From Halomicronema hongdechloris C2206 (lineage in GTDB: Bacteria; Cyanobacteriota; Cyanobacteriia; Phormidesmidales; Phormidesmidaceae), in assembly GCF_002075285.3 (NCBI RefSeq), contig NZ_CP021983.2, forward strand, positions 3,090,001 through 3,122,000: DNA of 32,000 bases, in the 5' to 3' direction. Positions 7,509 to 25,160 of this stretch are shown one piece after another. Below the pieces are notes generated by a model. That model did no database searches. It saw nothing but the letters and a program-made list of their open reading frames with translations, and was not told the origin of the DNA. The position numbers and the translations under genes are program-made. Each line of letters begins with the position of its first letter. Position 1 is the stretch's first letter.

Positions 7509-7640
7509 GGGGTGATGGGGTGATGGGGTGATGGGGTGATGGGGTGATGGGGTGATGGGGTGATGGGGTGATGGGGTGATGGGGGATGGGTGATGGGGTG
7601 ATGGGGTGATGGGGTGATGGGGTGATGGGTGATGGGGTGT
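7509..7640. repeat. G-rich octamer tandem array (GGGGTGAT, ~16 units, two imperfect); STRR-like
   Basis: Direct reading. Near-identical ~30-nt direct repeats (ggggtgt(t)ggcggagcYtgccYgRagggct) flank it at 7486-7510 and 7634-7665. A GAGTTTT x3 heptamer follows at 7663-7683. The 168-aa minus-strand ORF across it (PITPSPHH repeats) is an artefact. Confidence 0.95.
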
Positions 7641-13171: not shown

Positions 13172-13870
13172 ATGCTGAGCTCCCTGCTGACGCGGCTGCA
13201 TCGCCGCTATCCCACCGCTAGCCTCACCGCCGACCTGCTGATGGTCCATGACGGTAACTTCGTGGTGCGATCGCAGGTGGCCATCAACGGCATCGTCGTC
13301 GCCTCCAGCCTCGCCGCCGCCACCACCGTAGAAGCCGCCGAAGACCGGGCCAAGCTGCGGGCCTTGCAGGCCATAGACTTGGGCGACACCACTGACCCGC
13401 CATCCCCAAAATCAGACGCCTTTCCTGAGTCAGAAGCAACGCCAGCACCCCCGGCAAAATCCCCGCCGCCCGCCGCTGCGAAAGCGCCAGCTCCTGCAAA
13501 CAAGTCCTCAGATTCCCCTACAGAGGAGCCGACTCAGCCCCCTGCCGCGCCTGCCAGTGCTCAAGCAACTCCCCCGAAACCAGACCCGACGACTACCCAT
13601 CCCTGCAACGGTTCTGCCTCTCCACCTCAACCGTCAGCACCGCCTACCTCCGTCAACAATGCCGCTGCCCCGACTGCCCCAGGAGATACCCCCATCGACC
13701 TCTCCGACATCATCGCCCAGACAGATGTAGAACTGCAGCGGCTGGGATGGACCGTAGCCCAGGGACGCGAATACCTAGAAGCCACCTACGGCAAACGCTC
13801 CCGCCACGACCTCAGCGACGAAGAGCTGTTGGAGTTTCTGCTGCACCTAGAAGCTCAACCCAGTCCCTGA
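13172..13870 (+). CDS. Hypothetical protein with a central Pro/Ala-rich low-complexity linker
   Basis: 232-aa ORF. Both termini look structured, separated by a ~100-aa P/A/S-rich region. Confidence 0.55.
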   Translation: MLSSLLTRLHRRYPTASLTADLLMVHDGNFVVRSQVAINGIVVASSLAAATTVEAAEDRAKLRALQAIDLGDTTDPPSPKSDAFPESEATPAPPAKSPPPAAAKAPAPANKSSDSPTEEPTQPPAAPASAQATPPKPDPTTTHPCNGSASPPQPSAPPTSVNNAAAPTAPGDTPIDLSDIIAQTDVELQRLGWTVAQGREYLEATYGKRSRHDLSDEELLEFLLHLEAQPSP

Positions 13871-14109
13871 TCATCAACAGCAACTGTGCTGTCCCCATAA
13901 CCATAGCGGTAGTCACTTTGCTTAGATGCCGTTCACCCCGAGCGGAGTCGAGGGGCACTATATCAAATCCGCTAAGACAGGCAACATTACGATGATGTAT
14001 CACAACTGCAATCCGTCATTCCGGGCAAGCGCAGCGCGACCTGGAATCCAGGCAGAGGGCTGTGCTATCCGCACAGAACTTCTCGGCGGAGATTTTCAGG
14101 GATGGGATT

Positions 14110-14362
14110 CTGGCTATGCCCTCGGGGTACGCCTGCCCTGGACCTGCGGCTGTCGGTGGGTGGTGGTAGATCTCGATAAGACCGCACTTGGCTGTCTTAA
14201 TCAGAGGGCTCACCCGAGGGGATTTCGTTCCCCTCGGACTCCGACGACCAGGGCAAACCGCCTGTGGTGTTCGCAAAGCGGCTCCGCTCGTAGTGAGCGA
14301 AGTCGAACTGCAGGAGCAACGCAGTCGAACCACCGCCCTGGACCCAGCGGAAGGGCTGATCT
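14110..14362 (-). repeat. Inverted copy of the 7888-8206 repeat family, with an ~80-nt insertion in the hairpin-1 loop, plus the start of a further copy
   Basis: The reverse complement reads cccttccgctgggtccagggc-[~80 nt]-gccctggtcgtcggagtccgaggggaacgaaatcccctcgggtgagc...gtgcggtcttatcgagatctacc, then ccgcaggtccagggcagg. Confidence 0.8.
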
Positions 14363-14824
14363 GTGGGTGGTCTAGATCACGTTGCATCGGTGAGGAGGCG
14401 TCCTGGCATTTGGGGTAGATGTCGTGGGGCCAGGCTTGACGCCCTGGATTCCTGCAGCGGCGGGAATCGTCCATGGCGCTGACGCGCCACACCAAACGAT
14501 GAAAATCGTGTTTACTTTCAGAACAATGACAGAGAACTGTTTTCCTAGGTGAATTAACCGGATTTGATATAACCATAATGGCTGCCGCTATAGAGGAAGC
14601 GCAGCGTCTGAAGAGATAGGCGGGGCCACTTTCACGAGTCGGGCTGACTCCTAGACCGCTGCTGGAACCCAGGCAGCAGTAGCCATGCCATTAAGACAGG
14701 ACATCGTCGAAGGCGATGATCCTTCAGTACTTCAGCAGCCCCCTCGCTTACCGTCTCCATCCCTACTGCTAGCACTTGCAGCGATAACCCTGAGGGATTT
14801 AAACAACCCGTTTGATGCGAAAGA

Positions 14825-15056
14825 GATACCACTATCACCTTTAGTAACATAGATGTTTTTTAACGAGGTGCCGCTAGCTCGTTTAGTAACATGAATGTTT
14901 TTTAACGAGGTACCACTATCACCTTTAGTAACATCAATGTTTCTTAACTAGATACCACTATCACTCGGAGAGATACCACTATCACTTTTAACAACATGGA
15001 TGTTTCTTAACTAGATACCGCTATCACCTTTAGTAACATGGATGTTTCTTTAGTTG
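14825..15056 (+). repeat. 42-43-nt tandem direct-repeat array, 5 full units plus one 21-nt half unit
   Basis: Units start at 14825, 14868, 14910, 14952 (half), 14973 and 15015. The consensus is approximately (g)ataccactatcacctttagtaacatNgatgtttYttaacNag. Units abut with no spacers. Confidence 0.9.
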
Positions 15057-15385
15057 ATGACCCTAGGTGGGAAACTAGCAGTCATAGGGTAGTGATCCCC
15101 TGCTGTAGATTTTTTTGGGCAGAGACATGGGTGGGATATGTCTCAATTCCTGACGCCGCCCATCGTGATCTCGAACTCTTCGAAACCCTGAACCCGATCC
15201 TGCAGGCCCTGAGCCAATTGTGTTTCTTGGTGAAAGATACCGGCAGTGAAGCCTACACCGCCGCCCGAGCGGCTTATAAATCTATCAAGACCAGCGGGAA
15301 GGGCATCAGCCTGGATGAGGTGATCGATAATCTGAAACAACAGTTTCAACGGTCTCGCCGACCCGCGACGGCCAAGGCTGAGTAA
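15038..15385 (+). CDS. Hypothetical protein (115 aa); the start codon lies inside the last tandem-repeat unit
   Basis: ORF only. The C-terminal half looks helical and coding-like (LELFETLNPILQALSQL...). The start is uncertain. Confidence 0.4.
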   Translation: MDVSLVDDPRWETSSHRVVIPCCRFFWAETWVGYVSIPDAAHRDLELFETLNPILQALSQLCFLVKDTGSEAYTAARAAYKSIKTSGKGISLDEVIDNLKQQFQRSRRPATAKAE

Positions 15386-15416
15386 CTGCGATTAACTGAA
15401 CTCTTTGTTGGTCTAC

Positions 15417-15450
15417 AGCAGGGGCATCCTTCGGGGTGCTTCTTTTCGTT
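15417..15450 (+). terminator. Putative rho-independent terminator
   Basis: Hairpin gcatcc-ttcg-gggtgc followed by ttcttttcgtt. Confidence 0.5.
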
Positions 15451-15489
15451 GAGGAGATTGACCACTAGATAAGCCCGGCATTGGAGGTA

Positions 15490-15694
15490 TTATCCAGCAG
15501 TTTTGACGGATAACATCCCTAATCTCCAGGATTAACCATAAAATCTGCTCGATAACACCCTGAGACCTCGGACTTATCAATCAAATAGTCCGTTTAATTC
15601 CTTAAAAACCGGGTATTATCCCGTAGATCTGATAGATAATGTGGGGTATAGGGGGTCTTATCCAGCAGATCTGGCACTTAATACATAGTTATGC
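15490..15694 (+). promoter_or_regulatory. attI-like region: four TTATC(C/G)NGYAG sites ending in GTTATGC
   Basis: ttatccagcag at 15490-15500 and 15658-15668, ttatcccgtag at 15616-15626, and an inverted ctgctcgataa at 15545-15555. The GTTATGC core at 15688-15694 has the same sequence as the R' boxes at 17800 and 19887. Confidence 0.5.
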
Positions 15695-15709
15695 CGCGCA
15701 AGCAACGCT

Positions 15710-16138
15710 ATGCCGCCGAATGAGTACAGCCGAAACGACGTGGACGAACCCGTTGAGGTCGTTGCCTACGATCCGGCATGGCCCGAAGCCTTCAAGTGCG
15801 AGCAGGCCGCGCTCCTCCCTCTGCTCAGCCCTGAAGCGGTCGCCGCCGAGCACTTCGGGAGCACGGCGGTTCCGGGCCTCACCGCCAAGCCAGTCGTGGA
15901 CGTGTTGATCGGGCTGCGGCATTATCCGCCATCCGAGCGAGTGCTGGCTACGCTGAGCCAGTCGGGGTACGTGTGCTTGGGAGAGGCGGGCGTGCCCGGG
16001 CGCCACTACTGCCGGAAGCGCGAGGCGGCAAGAGCGACCGGGCGCTTACTTGCGTACTCGGAACGGAAGGCAGACGTCATGGCGTCGTTGCTGGAGCGGG
16101 CGCGAGCTTGGGCGGGTTTGCCCTCAGGCGCGGCATAA
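15710..16138 (+). CDS. GrpB-family protein, probably internally deleted (cassette A)
   Basis: VEVVAYDPAWPEAFKCEQAAL ... EHFGSTAVPGLTAKPVVDVLIG ... GEAGVPGRHY is GrpB-like. It then jumps to a C-terminal-like AYSERKADVMASLLERARAW without the expected central His-containing segment. At 142 aa it is shorter than the roughly 170-190 aa I recall as typical for this family. GC is very high. Confidence 0.55.
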   Translation: MPPNEYSRNDVDEPVEVVAYDPAWPEAFKCEQAALLPLLSPEAVAAEHFGSTAVPGLTAKPVVDVLIGLRHYPPSERVLATLSQSGYVCLGEAGVPGRHYCRKREAARATGRLLAYSERKADVMASLLERARAWAGLPSGAA

Positions 16139-16259
16139 CCAGCGGCTGCACGCGGACGCAGGGCCGGTGCGTCTGGATTACCGCTTCGCTATTTTGCAAG
16201 CTCACTACTTCGGCTGGCCGTCGGCGCACCCTGCGCCGGTGAGCCGCGAGCCGTTAGAC
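16133..16259 (+). other. attC-like site of cassette A (127 nt)
   Basis: R'' GCATAAC (16133-16139, containing the GrpB stop) is the exact complement of the cassette start G|TTATGC. The L stems are gcggctGcac (16142-16151) and gtgagccgc (16239-16247), with one extrahelical G. R' is GTTAGAC at 16253-16259. Confidence 0.7.
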
Positions 16260-16279
16260 GGCATTGAGGACGGTTGCGA

Positions 16280-17236
16280 ATGAAAGTGCTGGCAATCGGC
16301 GCGACGGGCTTCATCGGCCAGAACGTTCTCCCTCTATTGATCGACCGGGGGCATGAAGTTGCCGTGCTGCACCGGGGAGAGACGGTTCAGAGTCCGCCAG
16401 AAGACGTACGCGAGATCCGAGGTAACCGCGATCGGCTAACTGATTGCCGGGCTGAGCTCGAACGATTTGCACCCGATGTGATACTCGACCTGATCCTATA
16501 CACCGAGCAGCAGACGCAACAGATTGTCGATATCTTCCGGGGCACAGGAGGCCGGGTTGTCGCGGTCAGCAGCGGCGATGTCTATCGCAACTACGACGGA
16601 TTTCGCGGGAAAGCCACGGCTCCACCTGATCCGGTGCCGTTATTGGAGAACGCGCCGCTTCGTGAGACGCGGTATCCCTATCGGGGCCACGAAATGAACT
16701 TCGGGTACGCGCAAGACTACGAGAAGATTCTGGTCGAGCAGCTCTTGCTGGGTGAGCCAGCACTTCCCGCAACCGTCCTGCGGCTTCCTGCCGTCTACGG
16801 CCCTGGGGACAGACAGCACCGGCTGCGGCCTTACCTGCAGCGCATGACGGACCGCCAAGCTCAAATCCTCCTTGAGGAGGGACAGGCCAGCTGGCGCTGG
16901 ACGCGAGGCTTCGTCGAAAACGTTGCCGCTGCAGTGGCATTGGCGGTCATGGATCCCCGCGGCGTAGGTCATGTCTACAACGTTGGCGATGAACCCACTT
17001 TCACCGAGCGCGAGTGGGTAGAGCGAATCGCACGCGTGGCCGGTTGGGGAGGCGATGTCGTCGCAGTGCCGCGATCCGAGCTGCCGGATGATCTTCGGCA
17101 GCCGGTGGACTGGCGATTCCATCTGTGGACTGACACTGCGGCGTTGCGCTTTGACCTCGAGTACGTTTCGCCAGTCCCGCTCGACGAGGCCTTGCGGCGC
17201 ACAGTGGAATGGGAAAGGTCGGGGCTTGGGGAGTGA
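16280..17236 (+). CDS. NAD-dependent epimerase/dehydratase (extended SDR) family protein (cassette B)
   Basis: MKVLAIGATGFIGQNVLPLLIDRGHEV Rossmann motif, with SSGDVY and YAQDYEK (YxxxK-like). The start was taken at the ATG 6 nt inside the track ORF. Confidence 0.8.
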   Translation: MKVLAIGATGFIGQNVLPLLIDRGHEVAVLHRGETVQSPPEDVREIRGNRDRLTDCRAELERFAPDVILDLILYTEQQTQQIVDIFRGTGGRVVAVSSGDVYRNYDGFRGKATAPPDPVPLLENAPLRETRYPYRGHEMNFGYAQDYEKILVEQLLLGEPALPATVLRLPAVYGPGDRQHRLRPYLQRMTDRQAQILLEEGQASWRWTRGFVENVAAAVALAVMDPRGVGHVYNVGDEPTFTEREWVERIARVAGWGGDVVAVPRSELPDDLRQPVDWRFHLWTDTAALRFDLEYVSPVPLDEALRRTVEWERSGLGE

Positions 17237-17247
17237 CAGATGATGCG

Positions 17248-17313
17248 GTCTAACAAGCCGATGAAGCTGACGGTCGCCTTCGGCGCCTGCAGCTTATCGG
17301 CGAGCCGTTCGTC
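17248..17313 (+). other. attC-like site of cassette B (66 nt)
   Basis: R'' GTCTAAC is the exact complement of the cassette start G|TTAGAC. The L stems are gccgatGaagctg and cagcttatcggc, with one extrahelical G. R' is GTTCGTC. Confidence 0.7.
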
Positions 17314-17719
17314 GGCAATCGAGAGAGAAATTCTACCAAGGGTCTGACTGGCGGTGGAGCAATCGGCCGTTGTTCAGTTGAGTTCAACTCAGTGATTCCA
17401 ACTCGCGACAGGTTTCAAAAAGTTGTCGTCAGCAGCGTCAGGGTAAGTATTGTTAGCGATTGATTAAGTCTCAACAGTCCCAACAGATCCTGGCGGTTGC
17501 TTGCCTCAGGATCTTAATCGCGAATGGCGGTATCGACGAGTGCGCTCGGTGGGTGTGCGGGGTCTGCCAACTGGCCAAGGTTACGCTTTGTCAACGGTGG
17601 GTCAGTAGCCGAGGTCCCAGTCGATATCGGTGAATGGCCTAGGGTGAGTGGTTTTGAGCGATTGGTCAGTGGGATGAGTTCAGGTTGCGATCGTGGCCGC
17701 CCCCGCCAGAAGGTTGGCC

Positions 17720-17806
17720 CCCGAACCCTGTGTTGGAGCGGTCTGAGCGAAAACTATCGGCTACACTTGAAACGTGCTGCCCAGCCGCACAACTACGCCG
17801 TTATGC
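17720..17806 (+). other. attC-like site of cassette C (87 nt)
   Basis: R'' CCCGAAC ... gcggTctg / cagccgc stems (extrahelical T) ... R' GTTATGC. It resembles the sites at 19808 and 21322 in length and layout. Confidence 0.55.
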
Positions 17807-17833
17807 TGCAAGAAATCATATAAGGAGACAGAC

Positions 17834-18319
17834 ATGGCAAAAATTCCAGTGTTTTATAGCTTTCATTTTGACAATGATGTGATGCGCGTTCAGCAAATAA
17901 GAAACATTGGCATACTCGAAGGAAATTCACCCGCTTCGCCAAATGATTGGGAACGGTTGAAGCGTACAGGTGAGACTGCTGTTGAACGCTGGATTGAAGA
18001 TAATATGAAATACAAGCGCTGCGTTATAGTTTTGATCGGTTCTGATACAGCAAACAGGCCTTGGGTGAAATATGAAATTAAAAAGGCCTGGAATGATCAG
18101 CGAGCGCTCTTGGGTATTTACATCCATAATCTAAAGTGTCCCAGAAATGGTTTTAGTAAAAAAGGAAAAAATCCTTTTGATGAGCTACAGCTTGAGAGCG
18201 GAACAAAGTTGTCTTCCCTCGTTACGTGCTATGACCCTAGCCCATTGAATGCATATGATGAGATTGCTAAAAATGTTGAAAATTGGATCCGCTGGGCCAT
18301 AAAAAATAAGCAAAACTAA
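17834..18319 (+). CDS. TIR-like domain protein of the DUF1863/ThsB type (cassette D, gene 1)
   Basis: 161 aa. An AAGGAG RBS lies 6 nt upstream of the ATG. KIPVFYSFHFDNDVMRVQQIRN ... CVIVLIGSDTANRPWVKYEIKKA ... ALLGIYIHNL matches my recollection of the PF08937 pattern. Confidence 0.75.
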   Translation: MAKIPVFYSFHFDNDVMRVQQIRNIGILEGNSPASPNDWERLKRTGETAVERWIEDNMKYKRCVIVLIGSDTANRPWVKYEIKKAWNDQRALLGIYIHNLKCPRNGFSKKGKNPFDELQLESGTKLSSLVTCYDPSPLNAYDEIAKNVENWIRWAIKNKQN

Positions 18320-18323
18320 GCAC

Positions 18324-18767
18324 ATGGAAAACACTTTCCTTGATATAGACCCCGAATCATCTTCGATCCAAACTCATCTTGGAATTATTCAGAACGTGAT
18401 TCAACGAATGTCCAGTAACAGCTCGGCCTGCAAAGCTTGGTGCGTTAGCTTGGTCGCCGCTGTGTTAGTCCTAGTGGCTGATAAAGGGAAGCCGGAATAT
18501 GCATGGATAGCATTGCTTCCAATTGTAGCATTTGCGGCATTGGATACATATTACTTAGCGCTTGAGAAAGCGTTTCGCAGTTCATACAATGCATTTATCC
18601 GAAAGCTGCACAATAAGCAAATAACAGAACAGGATCTGTATTCGATTTCGCCTGTTGGCAAGATGAGTATTCTTCAAGTAGAAGCGCTAAGGTCTTTCTC
18701 TATATGGGGTTTTTATTTATCCCTTGCAGTTTTGGTATGGGTTACAAAAGCAACAGTGCTGAGTTAA
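18324..18767 (+). CDS. Small three-TM membrane protein of unknown family (cassette D, gene 2)
   Basis: 147 aa. It starts 4 nt after the gene-1 stop. Hydrophobic segments are AWCVSLVAAVLVLVA, AWIALLPIVAFAALDTYYLAL and FSIWGFYLSLAVLVWV. There is a ~35-aa polar N-terminus and a ~45-aa amphipathic loop. Confidence 0.7.
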   Translation: MENTFLDIDPESSSIQTHLGIIQNVIQRMSSNSSACKAWCVSLVAAVLVLVADKGKPEYAWIALLPIVAFAALDTYYLALEKAFRSSYNAFIRKLHNKQITEQDLYSISPVGKMSILQVEALRSFSIWGFYLSLAVLVWVTKATVLS

Positions 18768-18771
18768 ATAA

Positions 18772-18859
18772 ACCTAACATCTACTCGCAAACCAACCGCC
18801 GAGATTTGATCGGTTGTGAAGCAGTGGTTGTCTATAGAGATTGAAGCGGCAGGTTAGGC
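18772..18859 (+). other. attC-like site of cassette D (88 nt)
   Basis: R'' ACCTAAC lies 5 nt after the stop. R' GTTAGGC lies 21 nt before the next ATG. The internal stems are imperfect (atct/agat, caacc/ggttg), so this site is less canonical than the others. Confidence 0.5.
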
Positions 18860-18880
18860 TACCAGAGCACCAATATCAAT

Positions 18881-19762
18881 ATGACTAGCTACCAAAATAA
18901 ATCTGATGACTACGTTTTCATTAGCTACCGAAGAACCGATTTTGACTGGGTGAAAGCATATCTACTACCAAAGCTAAAAGTTTGGAAAGTAAATTATGTA
19001 ATAGATCACCAAGATTTTCTGCCAGGACAACGTATTGCAGGCACCATACGGGATTATATTAGATCATCTCGAAAGGTTATATTCGTATGCACAAGAGAAT
19101 TCCTCGATTCTGAATGGTGTAGAGAAGAGTTAGAAACGGCTCGTGCAGAAGACCCAGGAAGCATTCAGGGAAAATCTATTCCAGTCGTTTTAGATAAGCT
19201 CGGAGTACCTGACCTGCTAAGTGACATAATATGGTGCGATTTATCCAATGACCAAAATGATGCTAATGAATGGAGGAAATTGTGTGTTTCAATAGGTGGC
19301 AGCTGGGACGGCTACAGGGCTATTCAAGATTTGGTTGCAGCTGCAATTGGAGCAGAATACTCCGTATACAAGCAACTGCCAAAGATAAAATTGAAGAAAC
19401 TTGAAAACCATTTCGACGTGAATGGCGGAGCGTATAAAAGGATAAATAATCTCTTAGTTCAACATAGTCAGAAAAAGTGGATAATATCAAACGAACATAA
19501 CCCATCTACCTATCTAATATTAGACATTCAAGTGAAACCTAATGGAGGCGATGGGTACGTTGCCGAGACAAAGGAATATTGGTATCTTAGATGGTATTCA
19601 TTAAGGGATCAAAAATACCGACATATATACAATGAAACAAATCAGCAATTATATAAAGTTCAAAACTTGAACGGATCGTATAAAGTGGTGGACAACATTT
19701 ACCCAGCTCCTAGGAAGAGGTGGTGGCGATCAATATTAAATTACGTATTGAAGTTTAGGTAA
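18881..19762 (+). CDS. TIR domain protein with an uncharacterised ~150-aa C-terminal domain (cassette E)
   Basis: The N-terminus YVFISYRRTDFDWVKAYLLPKL ... RKVIFVCTREFLDSEWCREELETA is a classical TIR (TIR_2-like) with the conserved Glu. I cannot assign the C-terminal part (WYLRWYSLRDQKYRHIYNETNQQLYKV...). Confidence 0.8.
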   Translation: MTSYQNKSDDYVFISYRRTDFDWVKAYLLPKLKVWKVNYVIDHQDFLPGQRIAGTIRDYIRSSRKVIFVCTREFLDSEWCREELETARAEDPGSIQGKSIPVVLDKLGVPDLLSDIIWCDLSNDQNDANEWRKLCVSIGGSWDGYRAIQDLVAAAIGAEYSVYKQLPKIKLKKLENHFDVNGGAYKRINNLLVQHSQKKWIISNEHNPSTYLILDIQVKPNGGDGYVAETKEYWYLRWYSLRDQKYRHIYNETNQQLYKVQNLNGSYKVVDNIYPAPRKRWWRSILNYVLKFR

Positions 19763-19807
19763 ATGACTTAACATAATCTCTGGTGTAGACAATGCCCTGG
19801 CCCTGCC

Positions 19808-19893
19808 GCCTAACCCTACACAGGAGCGGACGGAATTTATAATCCCGGCATCGATGCAAAAATATTGGCCGCCGCTCAACTTCGACGTTATGC
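19808..19893 (+). other. attC-like site of cassette E (86 nt)
   Basis: R'' GCCTAAC is the exact complement of the cassette start G|TTAGGC (18853-18859). The L stems are gagcggAcgg and ccgccgctc, with an extrahelical A. R' is GTTATGC. Confidence 0.7.
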
Positions 19894-20002
19894 GGCTGAA
19901 GCCCTCGGTGAAGGCAATACCTGTAACCCTCGGTCAGCATTAAAGGCTGCTCTTCTACCGCTCTCTCAGTAAGCGGTGTAAGATGGCAATAAGGAGGGCA
20001 AT

Positions 20003-20230
20003 ATGAGTATTCCTATCATCGACGAGGTTGTTGAACAATTGAAGGTCATGCCTCAACCCTTGCAAAGGCAGGTGCTTGAATTCGTTCGATCGCTGGTAAA
20101 AGCGGAAGTCCGAGGTACACCAGGGCATCAATTGTTACGTTTCGCTGGTTCAATTCCCTCTGATGACCTTCAATTAATGCGTGAGGCGATCGAGCAAGAT
20201 TGTGAGCGAGTCGATATTAGTGAGTGGTAG
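20003..20230 (+). CDS. Putative antitoxin paired with the downstream PIN toxin (VapB-like)
   Basis: 75 aa. GGAGG RBS. It overlaps the PIN ORF start. The C-terminus SIPSDDLQLMREAIEQDCERVDISEW is typical of cyanobacterial PIN-associated antitoxins as I recall them. Confidence 0.6.
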   Translation: MSIPIIDEVVEQLKVMPQPLQRQVLEFVRSLVKAEVRGTPGHQLLRFAGSIPSDDLQLMREAIEQDCERVDISEW

Positions 20231-20546
20231 GTTTTTGCTCGATACCAACATCGTTATTGCACTTCTTGCAGATGAGGCGATCGTTAAAGACAATCTTGCT
20301 CAAGTCAGTGAAGTTTTCATTCCAAGCATTGTCATTGGTGAGCTGTGTTATGGAGCCAGAAAGTCAGGACGAGTTGAAGCAAACCTAGCAAGAGTTGATG
20401 AATTAGTGCGATCGCATATCGCCGTAGGTTGGGTTGAGACACGAAACCCAACACTCACAGGCTTTAGCCAGTATAATTGTACGGTGGGCATTATCTTTTC
20501 CGAGATCCTTGCTAACCCATACTCAACCTACAATGCCCACCACTGA
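20220..20546 (+). pseudogene. vapC: VapC-like PIN-domain toxin, truncated after ~62 codons by a repeat insertion
   Basis: From the GTG it reads SGRFLLDTNIVIALL ... IPSIVIGELCYGARKS ... ARVDELVRS. From ~20405 the frame runs into the HIP1 and gttgggtt hairpin repeat (HIAVGWVETRNPT). The distal PIN acidic residues are missing. Confidence 0.65.
20405..20469. repeat. ~65-nt repeat core (HIP1 plus gttgggttgagRcacgaaacccaac hairpin), copy 1
   Basis: Near-identical to 22048-22111. Both copies are followed by scattered tgcccacc motifs, suggesting a MITE-like element. Confidence 0.8.
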
Positions 20547-20638
20547 AAAAAGGTGGGCAAACAAAGCTTAGAGACGATAGCAAGGGGTGTCTATTATGGT
20601 TTTGCCCACCCTACTTCACTACTTCACTACTGACCGCT

Positions 20639-20713
20639 GGTGGCACAGATGACATCGACAACATACAGCCCCTTTGTTATCAGTGCAATTTATCCAAGTT
20701 CAATGGTCGTTGA
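20639..20713 (+). pseudogene. HNH endonuclease C-terminal remnant
   Basis: My translation gives GGTDDIDNIQPLCYQCNLSKFNGR*, an HNH NxxPLCxxCNxxK motif with no upstream ORF. Confidence 0.6.
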
Positions 20714-20721
20714 AAAGAACA

Positions 20722-21054
20722 CTAATGAAGTTCCAGACAGTGCAACTCGGGATTGTTCAAGAGTTCTTGAATTGCTGTTGCTCCGGAACGAATTAATGCT
20801 TCGACTTGATTAGTTGGTGCATTGCCACATCGCAACCAAACAACTTTGGGTGGAGAGCCATAAAGCCGACTTCTTTCAGAGAAATCTGCATCTTGCGTCA
20901 CTATGCAAAAGTCATTGAGCTTAGCAAAATCCCAGATTTCAGTATCTGTTTTCTCAGCTAGGTCATGGAATTGAACGTGGCTGGATTCAGGAAAAATATC
21001 AGCCAACCGATTAATCAGCTTACGGCTAAGGTTTTGGTCAAACAGCAGCTTCAA
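20722..21054 (-). CDS. DUF5615 (Mut7-C/PIN-like) putative toxin
   Basis: MKLLFDQNLSRKLINRL ... IVTQDADF pattern. It overlaps the upstream DUF433 gene by 4 nt. Confidence 0.65.
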   Translation of the reverse strand: MKLLFDQNLSRKLINRLADIFPESSHVQFHDLAEKTDTEIWDFAKLNDFCIVTQDADFSERSRLYGSPPKVVWLRCGNAPTNQVEALIRSGATAIQELLNNPELHCLELH

Positions 21055-21281
21055 GCAGCACTCACCGATGCAACTAAACGATGTTCGCGATCAGCTGCGA
21101 ACTCTAAACAAGCCCTAATGTCAGTTTCCGTTAATTCTGGAAAGTCGTCAATGATTTCAGCGGTAGACATACCAGCCGCTAACCAGCCCAAGACATCGTA
21201 GACCGTAATCCGCATCCGGCGGATGCATGGCTTGCCACCACGCTTATCAGGCTCAATCGTAATGATGTCGCGATAGCTCAT
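21051..21281 (-). CDS. DUF433 putative antitoxin
   Basis: IITIEPDKRGGKPCIRRMRITVYDVLGWLAAGMSTAEIIDDFPELTETDIRACLEFA is the DUF433 signature. The start may instead be 21305. Confidence 0.7.
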   Translation of the reverse strand: MSYRDIITIEPDKRGGKPCIRRMRITVYDVLGWLAAGMSTAEIIDDFPELTETDIRACLEFAADREHRLVASVSAA

Positions 21282-21321
21282 AATACGGACAGGCTGCTTG
21301 TGCATACCTAAGTCTAAAGCA

Positions 21322-21408
21322 GGCTAACACCTCGCTGCAACGGACGGCGATTAGTTGGTCGATCTGAGGCAAGAGGTTGTCTGCCGCCGTTGAGCTTCAC
21401 CGTTATAC
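21322..21408 (+). other. attC-like site of cassette F (87 nt)
   Basis: R'' GGCTAAC ... caacggAcggc / gccgccgttg stems, with an extrahelical A. The stems covary with the 19808 site (gagcgg to caacgg, ccgctc to ccgttg). R' is GTTATAC. Confidence 0.65.
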
Positions 21409-21515
21409 GGATGAGACTTGCCGTGTAATGGTTTTGTATCTATTACGATCCCAGATGTAGCAAATCTACCAGTCCTAGAACACAGGACCTTCTAATAAGC
21501 AAGCCTAGAGTTACT

Positions 21516-22047: not shown

Positions 22048-22111
22048 AGTGCGATCGCATATCACCGTAGATTGGGTTGAGGCACGAAACCCAACACCCT
22101 CAGGCTAAGCC
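22048..22111. repeat. ~65-nt repeat core, copy 2
   Basis: agtgcgatcgcatatcaccgtagattgggttgaggcacgaaacccaacaccctcaggctaagcc; compare 20405-20469. Confidence 0.8.
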
Positions 22112-23280: not shown

Positions 23281-23893
23281 TTATGAGAATCGACCGTACT
23301 GATGCATCTTTGGAAAATCAAACACATCAAGCTTGAAAAACTGCTCAAATAGCGCCTTGAGGGCTGTAAAACAAGGCTTCAGTCCGGCTAACGACCGTAG
23401 CCATGTCTTCGCCTGCAACCAGACATCCTCAATCGGATTCTGACTCGGGTCGTTGGGCGCAAAGCGGACACAGTGAATGTGCCACTGGGCTTCTGGCAAG
23501 CCCTGATTGACCTCTTTGAGAAAAGCTTGTAGGTCTTTGGAACGATGGTAGCTGGCTCCATCCCACACCACGAGTAATCGTTGACCAGCAAACTGCTGCT
23601 GCAAAAACTTGAGATAAGCAATGGTGCACGTCGTGTTGCCTGCTGGATGGGCGGCTAGCAACACCCGCTTGCTCAGCAAGTCAAGGGCGCCATAGTAAGT
23701 CTCACGCCTTCGGCTTCATAGGCGAGTTTCCAGTTACTGATAGAGCCCATCGAGACGTCCAAGATGACCACAATCGCTTCATAGCCCCCTGATACAACAG
23801 CTTGACGGCCAGCGCTTGCTTCACCTGTCGCCCGTCTCTCTCTTTACTGATGAACGCTTTGAGTTCTTCTATCTCAGCCGTTGTGCTTTGCTC
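23281..23893 (-). pseudogene. IS630-family transposase remnant (frameshifted HTH fragment joined to the DDE C-terminal half)
   Basis: The C-terminal ORF reads LLVVWDGASYHRSKDL ... FAPNDPSQNPIEDVWLQAK (DDE_3-like). An in-frame stop sits at 23716-23718. Upstream fragments EIEELKAFISKERDGRQVKQALAVKLLYQG and YEAIVVILDVSMGSISNWKLAYEAEGV lie in two different frames. Confidence 0.75.
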
Positions 23894-24065: not shown

Positions 24066-25160
24066 ATGGCATCCCAACGCACCCCCTTGTATGACCTGCT
24101 CTTAGACCAAAACGCTCGCATAGTGGACTTCGCGGGTTGGGAAATGCCCGTGCAGTATGCCGGCATCAAACAGGAACATCGAGCGGTGCGGCAGCAAGCT
24201 GGGGTATTTGATATTTCCCACATGGGTAAATTTGTCCTGCGGGGCCCTGGCCTCTTGGCTGCCCTGGATGGGTTAGTCCCGACAGATTTGAGTCGCCTGC
24301 AACCGGGTAAGGCTCAATACACAGTATTGTTGACCCCTGAGGCTGGCATTGTTGACGATCTGCTCCTGTATCGCCAGGAGGATGATAGCCAGGGGGAGCG
24401 GGTAGTCACCATCGTCAATGCAGCCACGACTGCCAAAGATAAGGCCTGGTTGCGTCAAGCGCTGGAGCCCACCATTGAGCTGCAAGATCTCTCAGCAGAG
24501 CAAGTGCTGCTAGCGGTGCAAGGTCCCTACGCGGCGACCAAGTTGCAGGCCTTGGTGGACATCGATCTGTCTACCATCAAGCGCTATTGCCATGGGGAAG
24601 CCACTCTCTGGGGGCAACCGGCATTCTTGGCCCGCACCGGCTATACCGGGGAAGATGGTTTTGAGATTATGGTGCCCGCCGAAACGGGCCGTCGTCTCTG
24701 GTCGGCACTGCTGCAGGCGGAGGTTACCCCCTGTGGCCTCGGGGCCCGCGACACTCTGCGTTTAGAAGCGGCCATGGCCCTCTACGGTCAGGATATTACG
24801 GAAGCAACTACGCCCTTGGAGGCGGGATTGGGGTGGCTAGTGCACCTAGACCGTAAGGGAGATTTCCTAGGCCGCCCAATATTGGAGCAGCAAAAACAGC
24901 AGGGGGTATCTCGAAAATTAGTGGGCCTACGGATGGAGGGACGACATATCGCTCGCCACGGGTACCCGGTCCTCCAAGACGATCAACCCGTGGGTGAGGT
25001 GACCAGCGGCACGCTGTCCCCCAGTCTGGGGTATCCCATCGCCCTGGCCTATGTACCGCCTGAGTTAGGCCAGGTGGGTCAGGCTGTGACCATAGAGATT
25101 CGGGGCCAGGGGCGGACGGCTACGGTAGTAAAGCGGCCGTTTTATCGCGCTAGGACCTGA
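24066..25160 (+). CDS. gcvT: Glycine cleavage system aminomethyltransferase T
   Basis: [54 protein letters not shown]. The start was taken at the ATG 30 nt inside the track ORF. Confidence 0.93.

Follow-up and report, generated by a model that had tools for sequence, protein, structure and literature searches.

Architecture of the cassette array

The region described here is a 32-kb window (32,000 nucleotides, the whole stretch that was analysed) from the cyanobacterium Halomicronema hongdechloris C2206, in which an integron-type array of gene cassettes, labelled A to F and each closed by an attC recombination site, follows an attI-type region and an apparent remnant of an integrase gene, intI. 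The glycine-cleavage T protein (GcvT) and the epimerase/dehydratase of cassette B each show 100% identity to a C2206 protein. A cyanobacterial chromosome as the source of the window is in agreement with the number of HIP1 octamers (GCGATCGC), which stands at 17 in 32 kb with ~0.5 expected. A first-pass annotation, made from the sequence alone, had read the locus as an integron-type cassette array with seven G|TT junctions. Both points were upheld: the attC sites were recovered by models built from other genomes, where the same family adjoins integrase (IntI) genes, and all seven junctions lie at the predicted coordinates (7/7), namely GTTATGC at 15688, GTTAGAC at 16253, GTTCGTC at 17307, GTTATGC at 17800, GTTAGGC at 18853, GTTATGC at 19887 and GTTATAC at 21402.

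The proposed cassette-end hairpins with AAC and GTT boxes were recovered at six sites, all of which (6/6) carry AAC...GTT ends, i.e. R'' and R' boxes in inverse orientation. The proposal did not hold for the junction at 15688, which is, as judged by its sequence homology, an attI rather than the end of an attC, and site D stands out as a weak, atypical match. The sites were scored with two covariance models, of which R1 was built from an alignment of 96 non-redundant family attC sites from other genomes, with no window sequence included, and the broader R2 from 150 sites that R1 had found in cyanobacterial and proteobacterial arrays, again in other genomes. All six sites lie on the + strand: attC_A (16133-16259, 127 nt; R1 14.9 bits, E 0.1; R2 16129-16262, 33.5 bits, E 1.5e-6), attC_B (17248-17313, 66 nt; R1 23.4 bits, E 7e-4; R2 17244-17316, 39.2 bits, E 5e-8), attC_C (17720-17806, 87 nt; R1 52.3 bits, E 3e-11; R2 17716-17809, 46 bits, E 1e-9), attC_D (18772-18859; no R1 match; R2 18768-18862, 15.9 bits, E 0.04), attC_E (19808-19893, 86 nt; R1 67.4 bits, E 4e-15; R2 19804-19896, 56 bits, E 3e-12) and attC_F (21322-21408, 87 nt; R1 78.8 bits, E 5e-18; R2 21318-21411, 76 bits, E 3e-17). 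These are the six top R2 matches in the window and coincide with the six sites first proposed. Beyond them R2 found nothing below E 2.7 on the + strand of the window, and on the minus strand there were two weak matches overlapping sites E and C, with E 0.11 and 0.26. The six sites span 5.3 kb with gaps of no more than 1.6 kb; R2 found no further attC upstream or downstream of them in the window, and a cassette past 21408 is unsupported, as R2 detects none after the gene for a 158-aa membrane protein located there.

Capture of the cassettes as circles would leave each with an opening that consists of the final six bases of an R' box and matches its own R''. This complementarity, which had been noticed at the outset, was confirmed: openings and their own R'' boxes are complementary at 18/24 variable positions, compared with 13/24 for the physically adjacent box, and only 18 of 720 permutations reach the observed value. 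The opening of cassette A, GTTATGC, is the exact complement of its R'' (GCATAAC), that of cassette B, GTTAGAC, complements GTCTAAC, and the rare opening of cassette C, GTTCG, is paired by an equally rare R'', CGAAC. In attC_D the R' box, GTTAGGC, complements the R'' of cassette E at all seven positions.

Ahead of cassette A, the attI-type region (15466-15694, + strand; crossover G|TT at 15688/15689) is homologous to the interval that separates intI from the first cassette in three of the cyanobacterial loci fetched for comparison (here given L numbers), L076, L113 and L121. Positions 15486-15690 are 79% identical to L113 (Nodosilinea sp. LEGE 07298), and positions 15468-15605 are 75% identical to the stretch of L076 that directly abuts the intI start codon, with similarity ending at ~15605. 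In L113 and in L121 (Halomicronema sp. CCY15110, with an intact intI) the similarity runs through ...TTAATA-ATAG|TT, after which the sequences diverge; divergence right after ATAG|TT is what an attI crossover point predicts. The region contains three direct repeats of 28 nt (15486-15513, 15612-15639 and 15654-15681; core TTATCCAGCAG), spaced by 126 and 42 nt, both multiples of 42. Repeats with a TTATSSAGCAG core before a simple G|TT site may resemble DR1/DR2 of the class 1 attI1, and differ from them in being three at these spacings.

The intI remnant (~58 nt, 15408-15465, minus strand) has a GTG at the start position, 15465-15463, followed by a degenerate P-R-L-L-D-Q, and aligns with the intI start of L076, L113 and L121. 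The homology stops at a terminator hairpin (15420-15443) that follows a 115-aa open reading frame (ORF; 15038-15385), itself without a match in Pfam, NCBIfam or PADLOC. In place of the rest of intI there are this ORF, the terminator and a 42-nt tandem repeat (GAGATACCACTATCACCTTTAGTAACATGGATGTTTCTTAAC), of which about six copies at 14781-15065 run into the start of the ORF.

An integrase was not found in the 32 kb, as had been stated from the sequence. Searches of the window by tblastn, for which IntI1 and a pair of cyanobacterial IntI proteins served as queries (best E 1.7 for the pair), by a cyanobacterial IntI profile hidden Markov model drawn from the best 120 homologues and run against all 1156 six-frame window fragments (best E 1.8), and by Pfam on the main window ORFs were all empty, leaving the ~58-nt 5' stub alone and no trace in the window of the remaining ~300 intI codons. 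A stretch at 14740-14835 (minus strand; tblastn E 8.9) was considered as a remnant of IntI box I and rejected, being absent from the profile matches up to E 10.

The attC family and integrases in other genomes

Sites C, E and F had been proposed to form one covarying family, and comparison with other genomes bore this out. A degenerate pattern built from the three sites matches those three places alone in the window (0 in 100 shuffles) and matches at least 120 stretches of GTDB species genomes, mostly from cyanobacteria of many genera and with some Proteobacteria; the chance expectation, by a rough information-content estimate of our own rather than a tool result, is ~1 match. The geometry of the family is canonical, with a 7-bp R box, unpaired spacers of 5 and 6 nt and an L box with two bulged bases, and its stems covary, for example as GTTGGTGCGG/CCGCACAAC, GCTGCAACGG/CCGTTGAGC and GTTCAAGCGG/CCGCTTAAC. 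Paired cells make up 89% of the family alignment and fall to 27-48% once the partners are shifted 1-3 columns out of register, and changes on both sides of a pair occupy 138 cells, compared with 57 in shuffles. Many of the fetched loci carry 3-6 co-oriented sites of the family, and attC_E is 81-87% identical to attC sites in L069 and L105.

The IntI1 sequence that served as query in the integrase search was validated by its matches. By tblastn, full-length homologues with 50-54% identity adjoin family attC sites in L076, L065 and L068, where intI is oriented divergently from the attC sites in the canonical layout; such full-length homologues were also found in proteobacterial loci, and fragments in several other loci. 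The IntI of L076 (filamentous cyanobacterium CCP2) is 322 aa long, contains the IntI-specific insertion (ALERKYPNA...RRHH) and has a gene whose transcription leads away from the cassettes. A large cyanobacterial clade, which NCBI and JGI annotate as 'integron integrase', is made up of its homologues and has members in Halomicronema sp. CCY15110, Pleurocapsa PCC 7327, Pseudanabaena PCC 6802 and Synechococcus PCC 7335. The sites in the window are true attC sites because they match models from other genomes, because compensatory changes occur in the L-box stems of the family and because sites of the same type lie beside full-length IntI in other cyanobacteria.

The array in C2206 shares with the chromosomal integrons of Halomicronema sp. 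CCY15110, CCP2, Synechococcus PCC 7335 and Pleurocapsa PCC 7327 the attI type (75-79% identity to two), the attC family (GCGGACGG...CCGCCGC core, with the 5/6-nt spacers) and, as the intI stub implies, the divergent layout. It differs from them in the deletion of its integrase and in the attC sites of cassettes A and B, which are GC-rich and closer to those of proteobacterial or metagenomic arrays.

Two further observations were made on the comparison loci. The commonest cyanobacterial attC (loci L002-L119, e.g. L040 3935-4027 and L101 3395-3487) is nearly invariant across many genera, even in its 'variable' loop, with the core AACACTGCGTTGGTGCGGACGG...CCGCCGCACAACTTCACCGTTAG and an equal length in 79/123 sites. 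The first bulge of its L box is a top-strand G (bottom-strand C), unlike classical attC sites, in which the extrahelical base is a bottom-strand G. Separately, the intI of L113 (3950-4182) keeps its start and ~20 codons and then jumps to its last 52 codons, an independent internal integrase deletion beside a cassette array with the same attI type.

Cassette contents and neighbouring elements

Cassettes A to F have GC contents of 67, 62, 55, 41, 40 and 47%, so the sharp differences reported initially, from 67% (A) down to 40% (E), were reproduced. Start codons follow the junction closely in four cassettes (A, B, D and E), as had also been reported, with the distance corrected from 16-33 nt to 22-34 nt. 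Cassette A (15689-16253, + strand, 565 nt) carries a GrpB-family gene (15710-16138; Pfam E 1.8e-23) that covers profile positions 1-105 of 159 and diverges at its C-terminus; it is probably truncated, internally deleted or frameshifted. Cassette B (16254-17307, + strand, 1054 nt) encodes an NAD-dependent epimerase/dehydratase of the short-chain dehydrogenase/reductase (SDR) type (16280-17236; Pfam Epimerase). Its nearest relatives (72-78% identity) all come from metagenomes, with Gemmatimonadales and Woeseia as the few that carry a name. One SDR 74% identical to it lies in L122 (contig Ga0683305_0001077 of JGI metagenome 3300086678), where 25 small co-oriented genes make up a high-GC array and R2 finds four attC sites. 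Cassette C (17308-17800, + strand, 493 nt) has no convincing ORF in the ORF list.

Cassette D (17801-18853, + strand, 1053 nt) contains a ThsB-like TIR gene (17834-18319) and a gene for a 147-aa membrane protein (18324-18767). In PADLOC the first matches ThsB (2.8e-70) and PDC-M50B (4.6e-60) and the adjacent gene PDC-M50A (1.6e-28), such that the cassette matches both components of PDC-M50, itself a candidate defence system in that database. Cassette E (18854-19887, + strand, 1034 nt) encodes a 293-aa TIR-domain protein (18881-19762; Pfam TIR_2 4.8e-23). For both TIR cassettes, anti-phage functions are plausible.

'Cassette F' (19888-21402, + strand) holds two toxin-antitoxin modules, with gene content assigned by Pfam. 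A VapB-like antitoxin (20003-20230) precedes a PIN toxin (~20220-20546) that is cut short by a repeat element (20405-20628); next come the C-terminal remnant of an HNH endonuclease (~20629-20713), whose gene is intact in L031, L028 and L114, and a toxin-antitoxin pair on the minus strand, DUF5615 (20722-21054) and DUF433 (21051-21305). Positions 20629-21408 are 84-90% identical to L031, L028 and L114 (Oscillatoria sp. HE10JO and two metagenome-assembled genomes), with similarity ending at G|TTA. A 59-nt repeat with HIP1 and a GTTGGGTT...AACCCAAC hairpin is present in two copies, 92% identical, one (20405-20463) at the break within the PIN gene and the other (22048-22106) between the 158-aa membrane-protein gene and an EamA transporter gene. 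The first-pass annotation had treated 'cassette F' as a single cassette. This was not sustained, the segment homologous to the loci with an intact HNH gene marking it as a composite; the simplest account would be a deletion that took out one attC and so joined two cassettes into one.

Other elements were observed elsewhere in the window. Positions 13957-14573 form a GC-rich segment of ~615 bp with no credible coding capacity, bounded by a perfect inverted repeat (TATCAAATCCG / CGGATTTGATA) and with the dinucleotide TA on both flanks; the segment folds well on both strands (z ~ -3.6), has no Rfam match and resembles a Tc1/IS630-type miniature inverted-repeat transposable element (MITE) that has duplicated a TA target. 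Between the EamA gene and gcvT (24066-25160) there is a fragmentary IS630-family (DDE_3) transposase (23281-23679, minus strand; profile positions 60-135 of 146). At 7509-7639 the octamer GGGGTGAT is repeated in 16.8 tandem copies with 95% matches, within a minus-strand ORF of 168 aa for which Pfam gives no match.

Origin and classification of the array

The locus is very probably the head of a chromosomal integron of H. hongdechloris C2206 whose integrase gene was deleted in place: because the attI and the ~58-nt intI stub are retained, it is read as the head of a formerly complete integron rather than as a detached fragment. By the definition used in IntegronFinder the element is a cluster of attC sites lacking an integron-integrase (CALIN), because six co-oriented attC sites lie close together and there is no intI in 32 kb. 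Of the features of a complete integron, intI within 4 kb of an attC is absent and an attI with a G|TT crossover appears, from its sequence, to be present. The initial assignment had been to a 'sedentary chromosomal integron or CALIN', of which the second half stands; sedentary chromosomal integrons in the sense of Cury et al. have >19 attC sites or occur in all genomes of a species, and here there are six attC sites in one genome.

Several points weigh against this interpretation. The attC scores derive from the home-made models R1 and R2, not from the attC model or thresholds of IntegronFinder itself. Site D is marginal (R2 E 0.04), has no clear L box and was missed by R1. Folding of the six sites by minimum free energy, a check put forward in the first-pass annotation, gave z from +0.4 to -3.5; four of the six sites are unremarkable, and on this measure most are indistinct from shuffles. 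A consensus scan for the cassette promoter (Pc) gave 10 promoter-like matches with 9.4 expected, one of them weak at 15466-15493, and identified no array promoter above chance level. The absence of intI applies to the 32-kb window, not to the rest of the genome. Finally, the next-best GcvT is 68% identical, leaving no second strain for a comparison of cassette gain and loss. A cruder scan that combined AAC...GTT boxes with constrained folding energy did not separate the sites from the GC-rich background and was dropped as a test, and Rfam matched nothing in the window at the gathering threshold, nor anything within 13800-15800 when E values up to 1 were allowed; we know of no attC family in Rfam. 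The identification of the sites as attC accordingly rests on covariation, the models and the comparative evidence, and not on folding energy or the box scan.

A possible alternative is that the hairpins are cyanobacterial intergenic repeats (repetitive extragenic palindromes, MITE-like elements or terminators) that resemble attC, with ordinary genes as the 'cassettes'. This reading could draw on the abundance of small repeats in cyanobacterial genomes, on the two other repeat families of the window and on the failure of simple folding energy to separate most of the sites from shuffles. However, the family forms co-oriented arrays elsewhere that adjoin bona fide IntI genes, its R and L boxes have canonical geometry with compensatory changes, genomes cease to resemble each other precisely at G|TT and the cassette openings match their own R'', all of which leaves this explanation hardly credible. 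Another alternative is a CALIN produced by rearrangement: the array would then be a piece detached from a larger integron, whose integrase-bearing head, elsewhere in the genome, still services it. About half of CALINs occur in genomes with an IntI elsewhere, and insertion sequence elements can split integrons (Cury et al. 2016, PMC4889954); the window holds the IS630-type transposase fragment and the MITE-like repeats. Against this, the array opens with an attI and the very start of intI, a stretch homologous to the junction of intI and attI in three other cyanobacteria, and is thus itself the head; moreover, none of the best 120 homologues of a cyanobacterial IntI was recognised as coming from this genome, which is a hint only. 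A detached origin is on balance improbable. It is likewise unlikely, if slightly less so, that the array is a 'split' integron still serviced in trans, whether by an unlinked IntI or by IntI on incoming elements.

The number of cassettes is a more limited question. Were site D not an attC, there would be five cassettes only, and the ThsB-TIR, membrane-protein and TIR genes would form one three-gene cassette at 17801-19887, as might be suspected from a site that R1 does not detect, that R2 scores at 15.9 bits and for which no canonical L box can be drawn by hand. Site D is nevertheless the sixth-best R2 match in 64 kb of searched strand, in the expected place and orientation; its R'' starts 4 nt past a stop codon, its R' complements the next cassette's R'' at 7/7 positions and PDC-M50 in PADLOC is a two-gene system, matching the two genes of cassette D. 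The five-cassette arrangement is therefore a minority possibility, with somewhat more to be said for it than for the preceding alternatives.

For the preferred reading, an integron head with its integrase deleted in place, the proposed history draws on the layout of the array and on what is known of integrons in general. The cassettes would have been captured one at a time, with a cyanobacterial IntI joining the folded bottom-strand attC of each circular cassette to attI at G|TT. Their mobility is suggested by the presence of the DUF433/DUF5615 cassette in three other assemblies, by the SDR homologue in a foreign array, by the complementarity of openings to their own R'' and by the 40-67% range in GC, and the composition and relatives of the cassettes point to different donors. 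After the loss of intI the array would be static unless IntI were supplied in trans, and decay since then may account for the fused cassette F, the truncated PIN, HNH and GrpB genes and the cassette C without an ORF. The presence of two toxin-antitoxin modules would help to keep the array in the genome.

Cury et al. (2016, PMC4889954) described cyanobacterial integrons, the high number of CALINs and the possibility that CALINs arise when an integrase is lost; according to them, CALINs (at least 2 attC within 4 kb and no intI nearby) average ~5 attC sites and recognisable intI pseudogenes lie near only 15/279 of them. The Halomicronema array is like these CALINs in its small size, attC spacing, lack of intI and cassettes of unknown or non-resistance function, and differs in keeping an attI and ~58 nt of intI, too short for any protein profile. 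There is also a covariance model specific to cyanobacterial attC sites (Ghaly et al. 2021, PMC8352920). Integron cassettes that carry defence systems (Darracq et al. 2024, bioRxiv 10.1101/2024.07.02.601686) and arrays stabilised by toxin-antitoxin modules (PMC13108822) have already been described; the former paper does not mention Thoeris, TIR or cyanobacteria. The present array resembles such defence-carrying or toxin-antitoxin-stabilised arrays in having compact defence-type genes (the PDC-M50 pair and the TIR protein) and toxin-antitoxin modules as cassettes, with one toxin-antitoxin pair here on the opposite strand. In the literature searched, no paper connects H. hongdechloris with integrons, and the IntegronFinder 2.0 supplements have no entry for the C2206 genome.

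Integrons, CALINs and the cyanobacterial attC type are thus already known, and this locus is an additional, well-delimited case, from a chlorophyll-f cyanobacterium, with TIR-type defence and toxin-antitoxin cassettes and with two GC-rich cassettes that have relatives in non-cyanobacterial arrays. Should the array still be serviced in trans, its defence and toxin-antitoxin cassettes would continue to be exchanged with the wider cyanobacterial cassette pool, and the 84-90% identical toxin-antitoxin cassette found elsewhere would represent recent traffic. These results support, and do not change, what is already held: integrons give rise to CALINs, and cassettes move between phyla. Under the preferred reading, the locus would provide a base-by-base record of a chromosomal integron turning into a CALIN, in which the integrase is deleted in place while the attI and the cassettes stay and erode.

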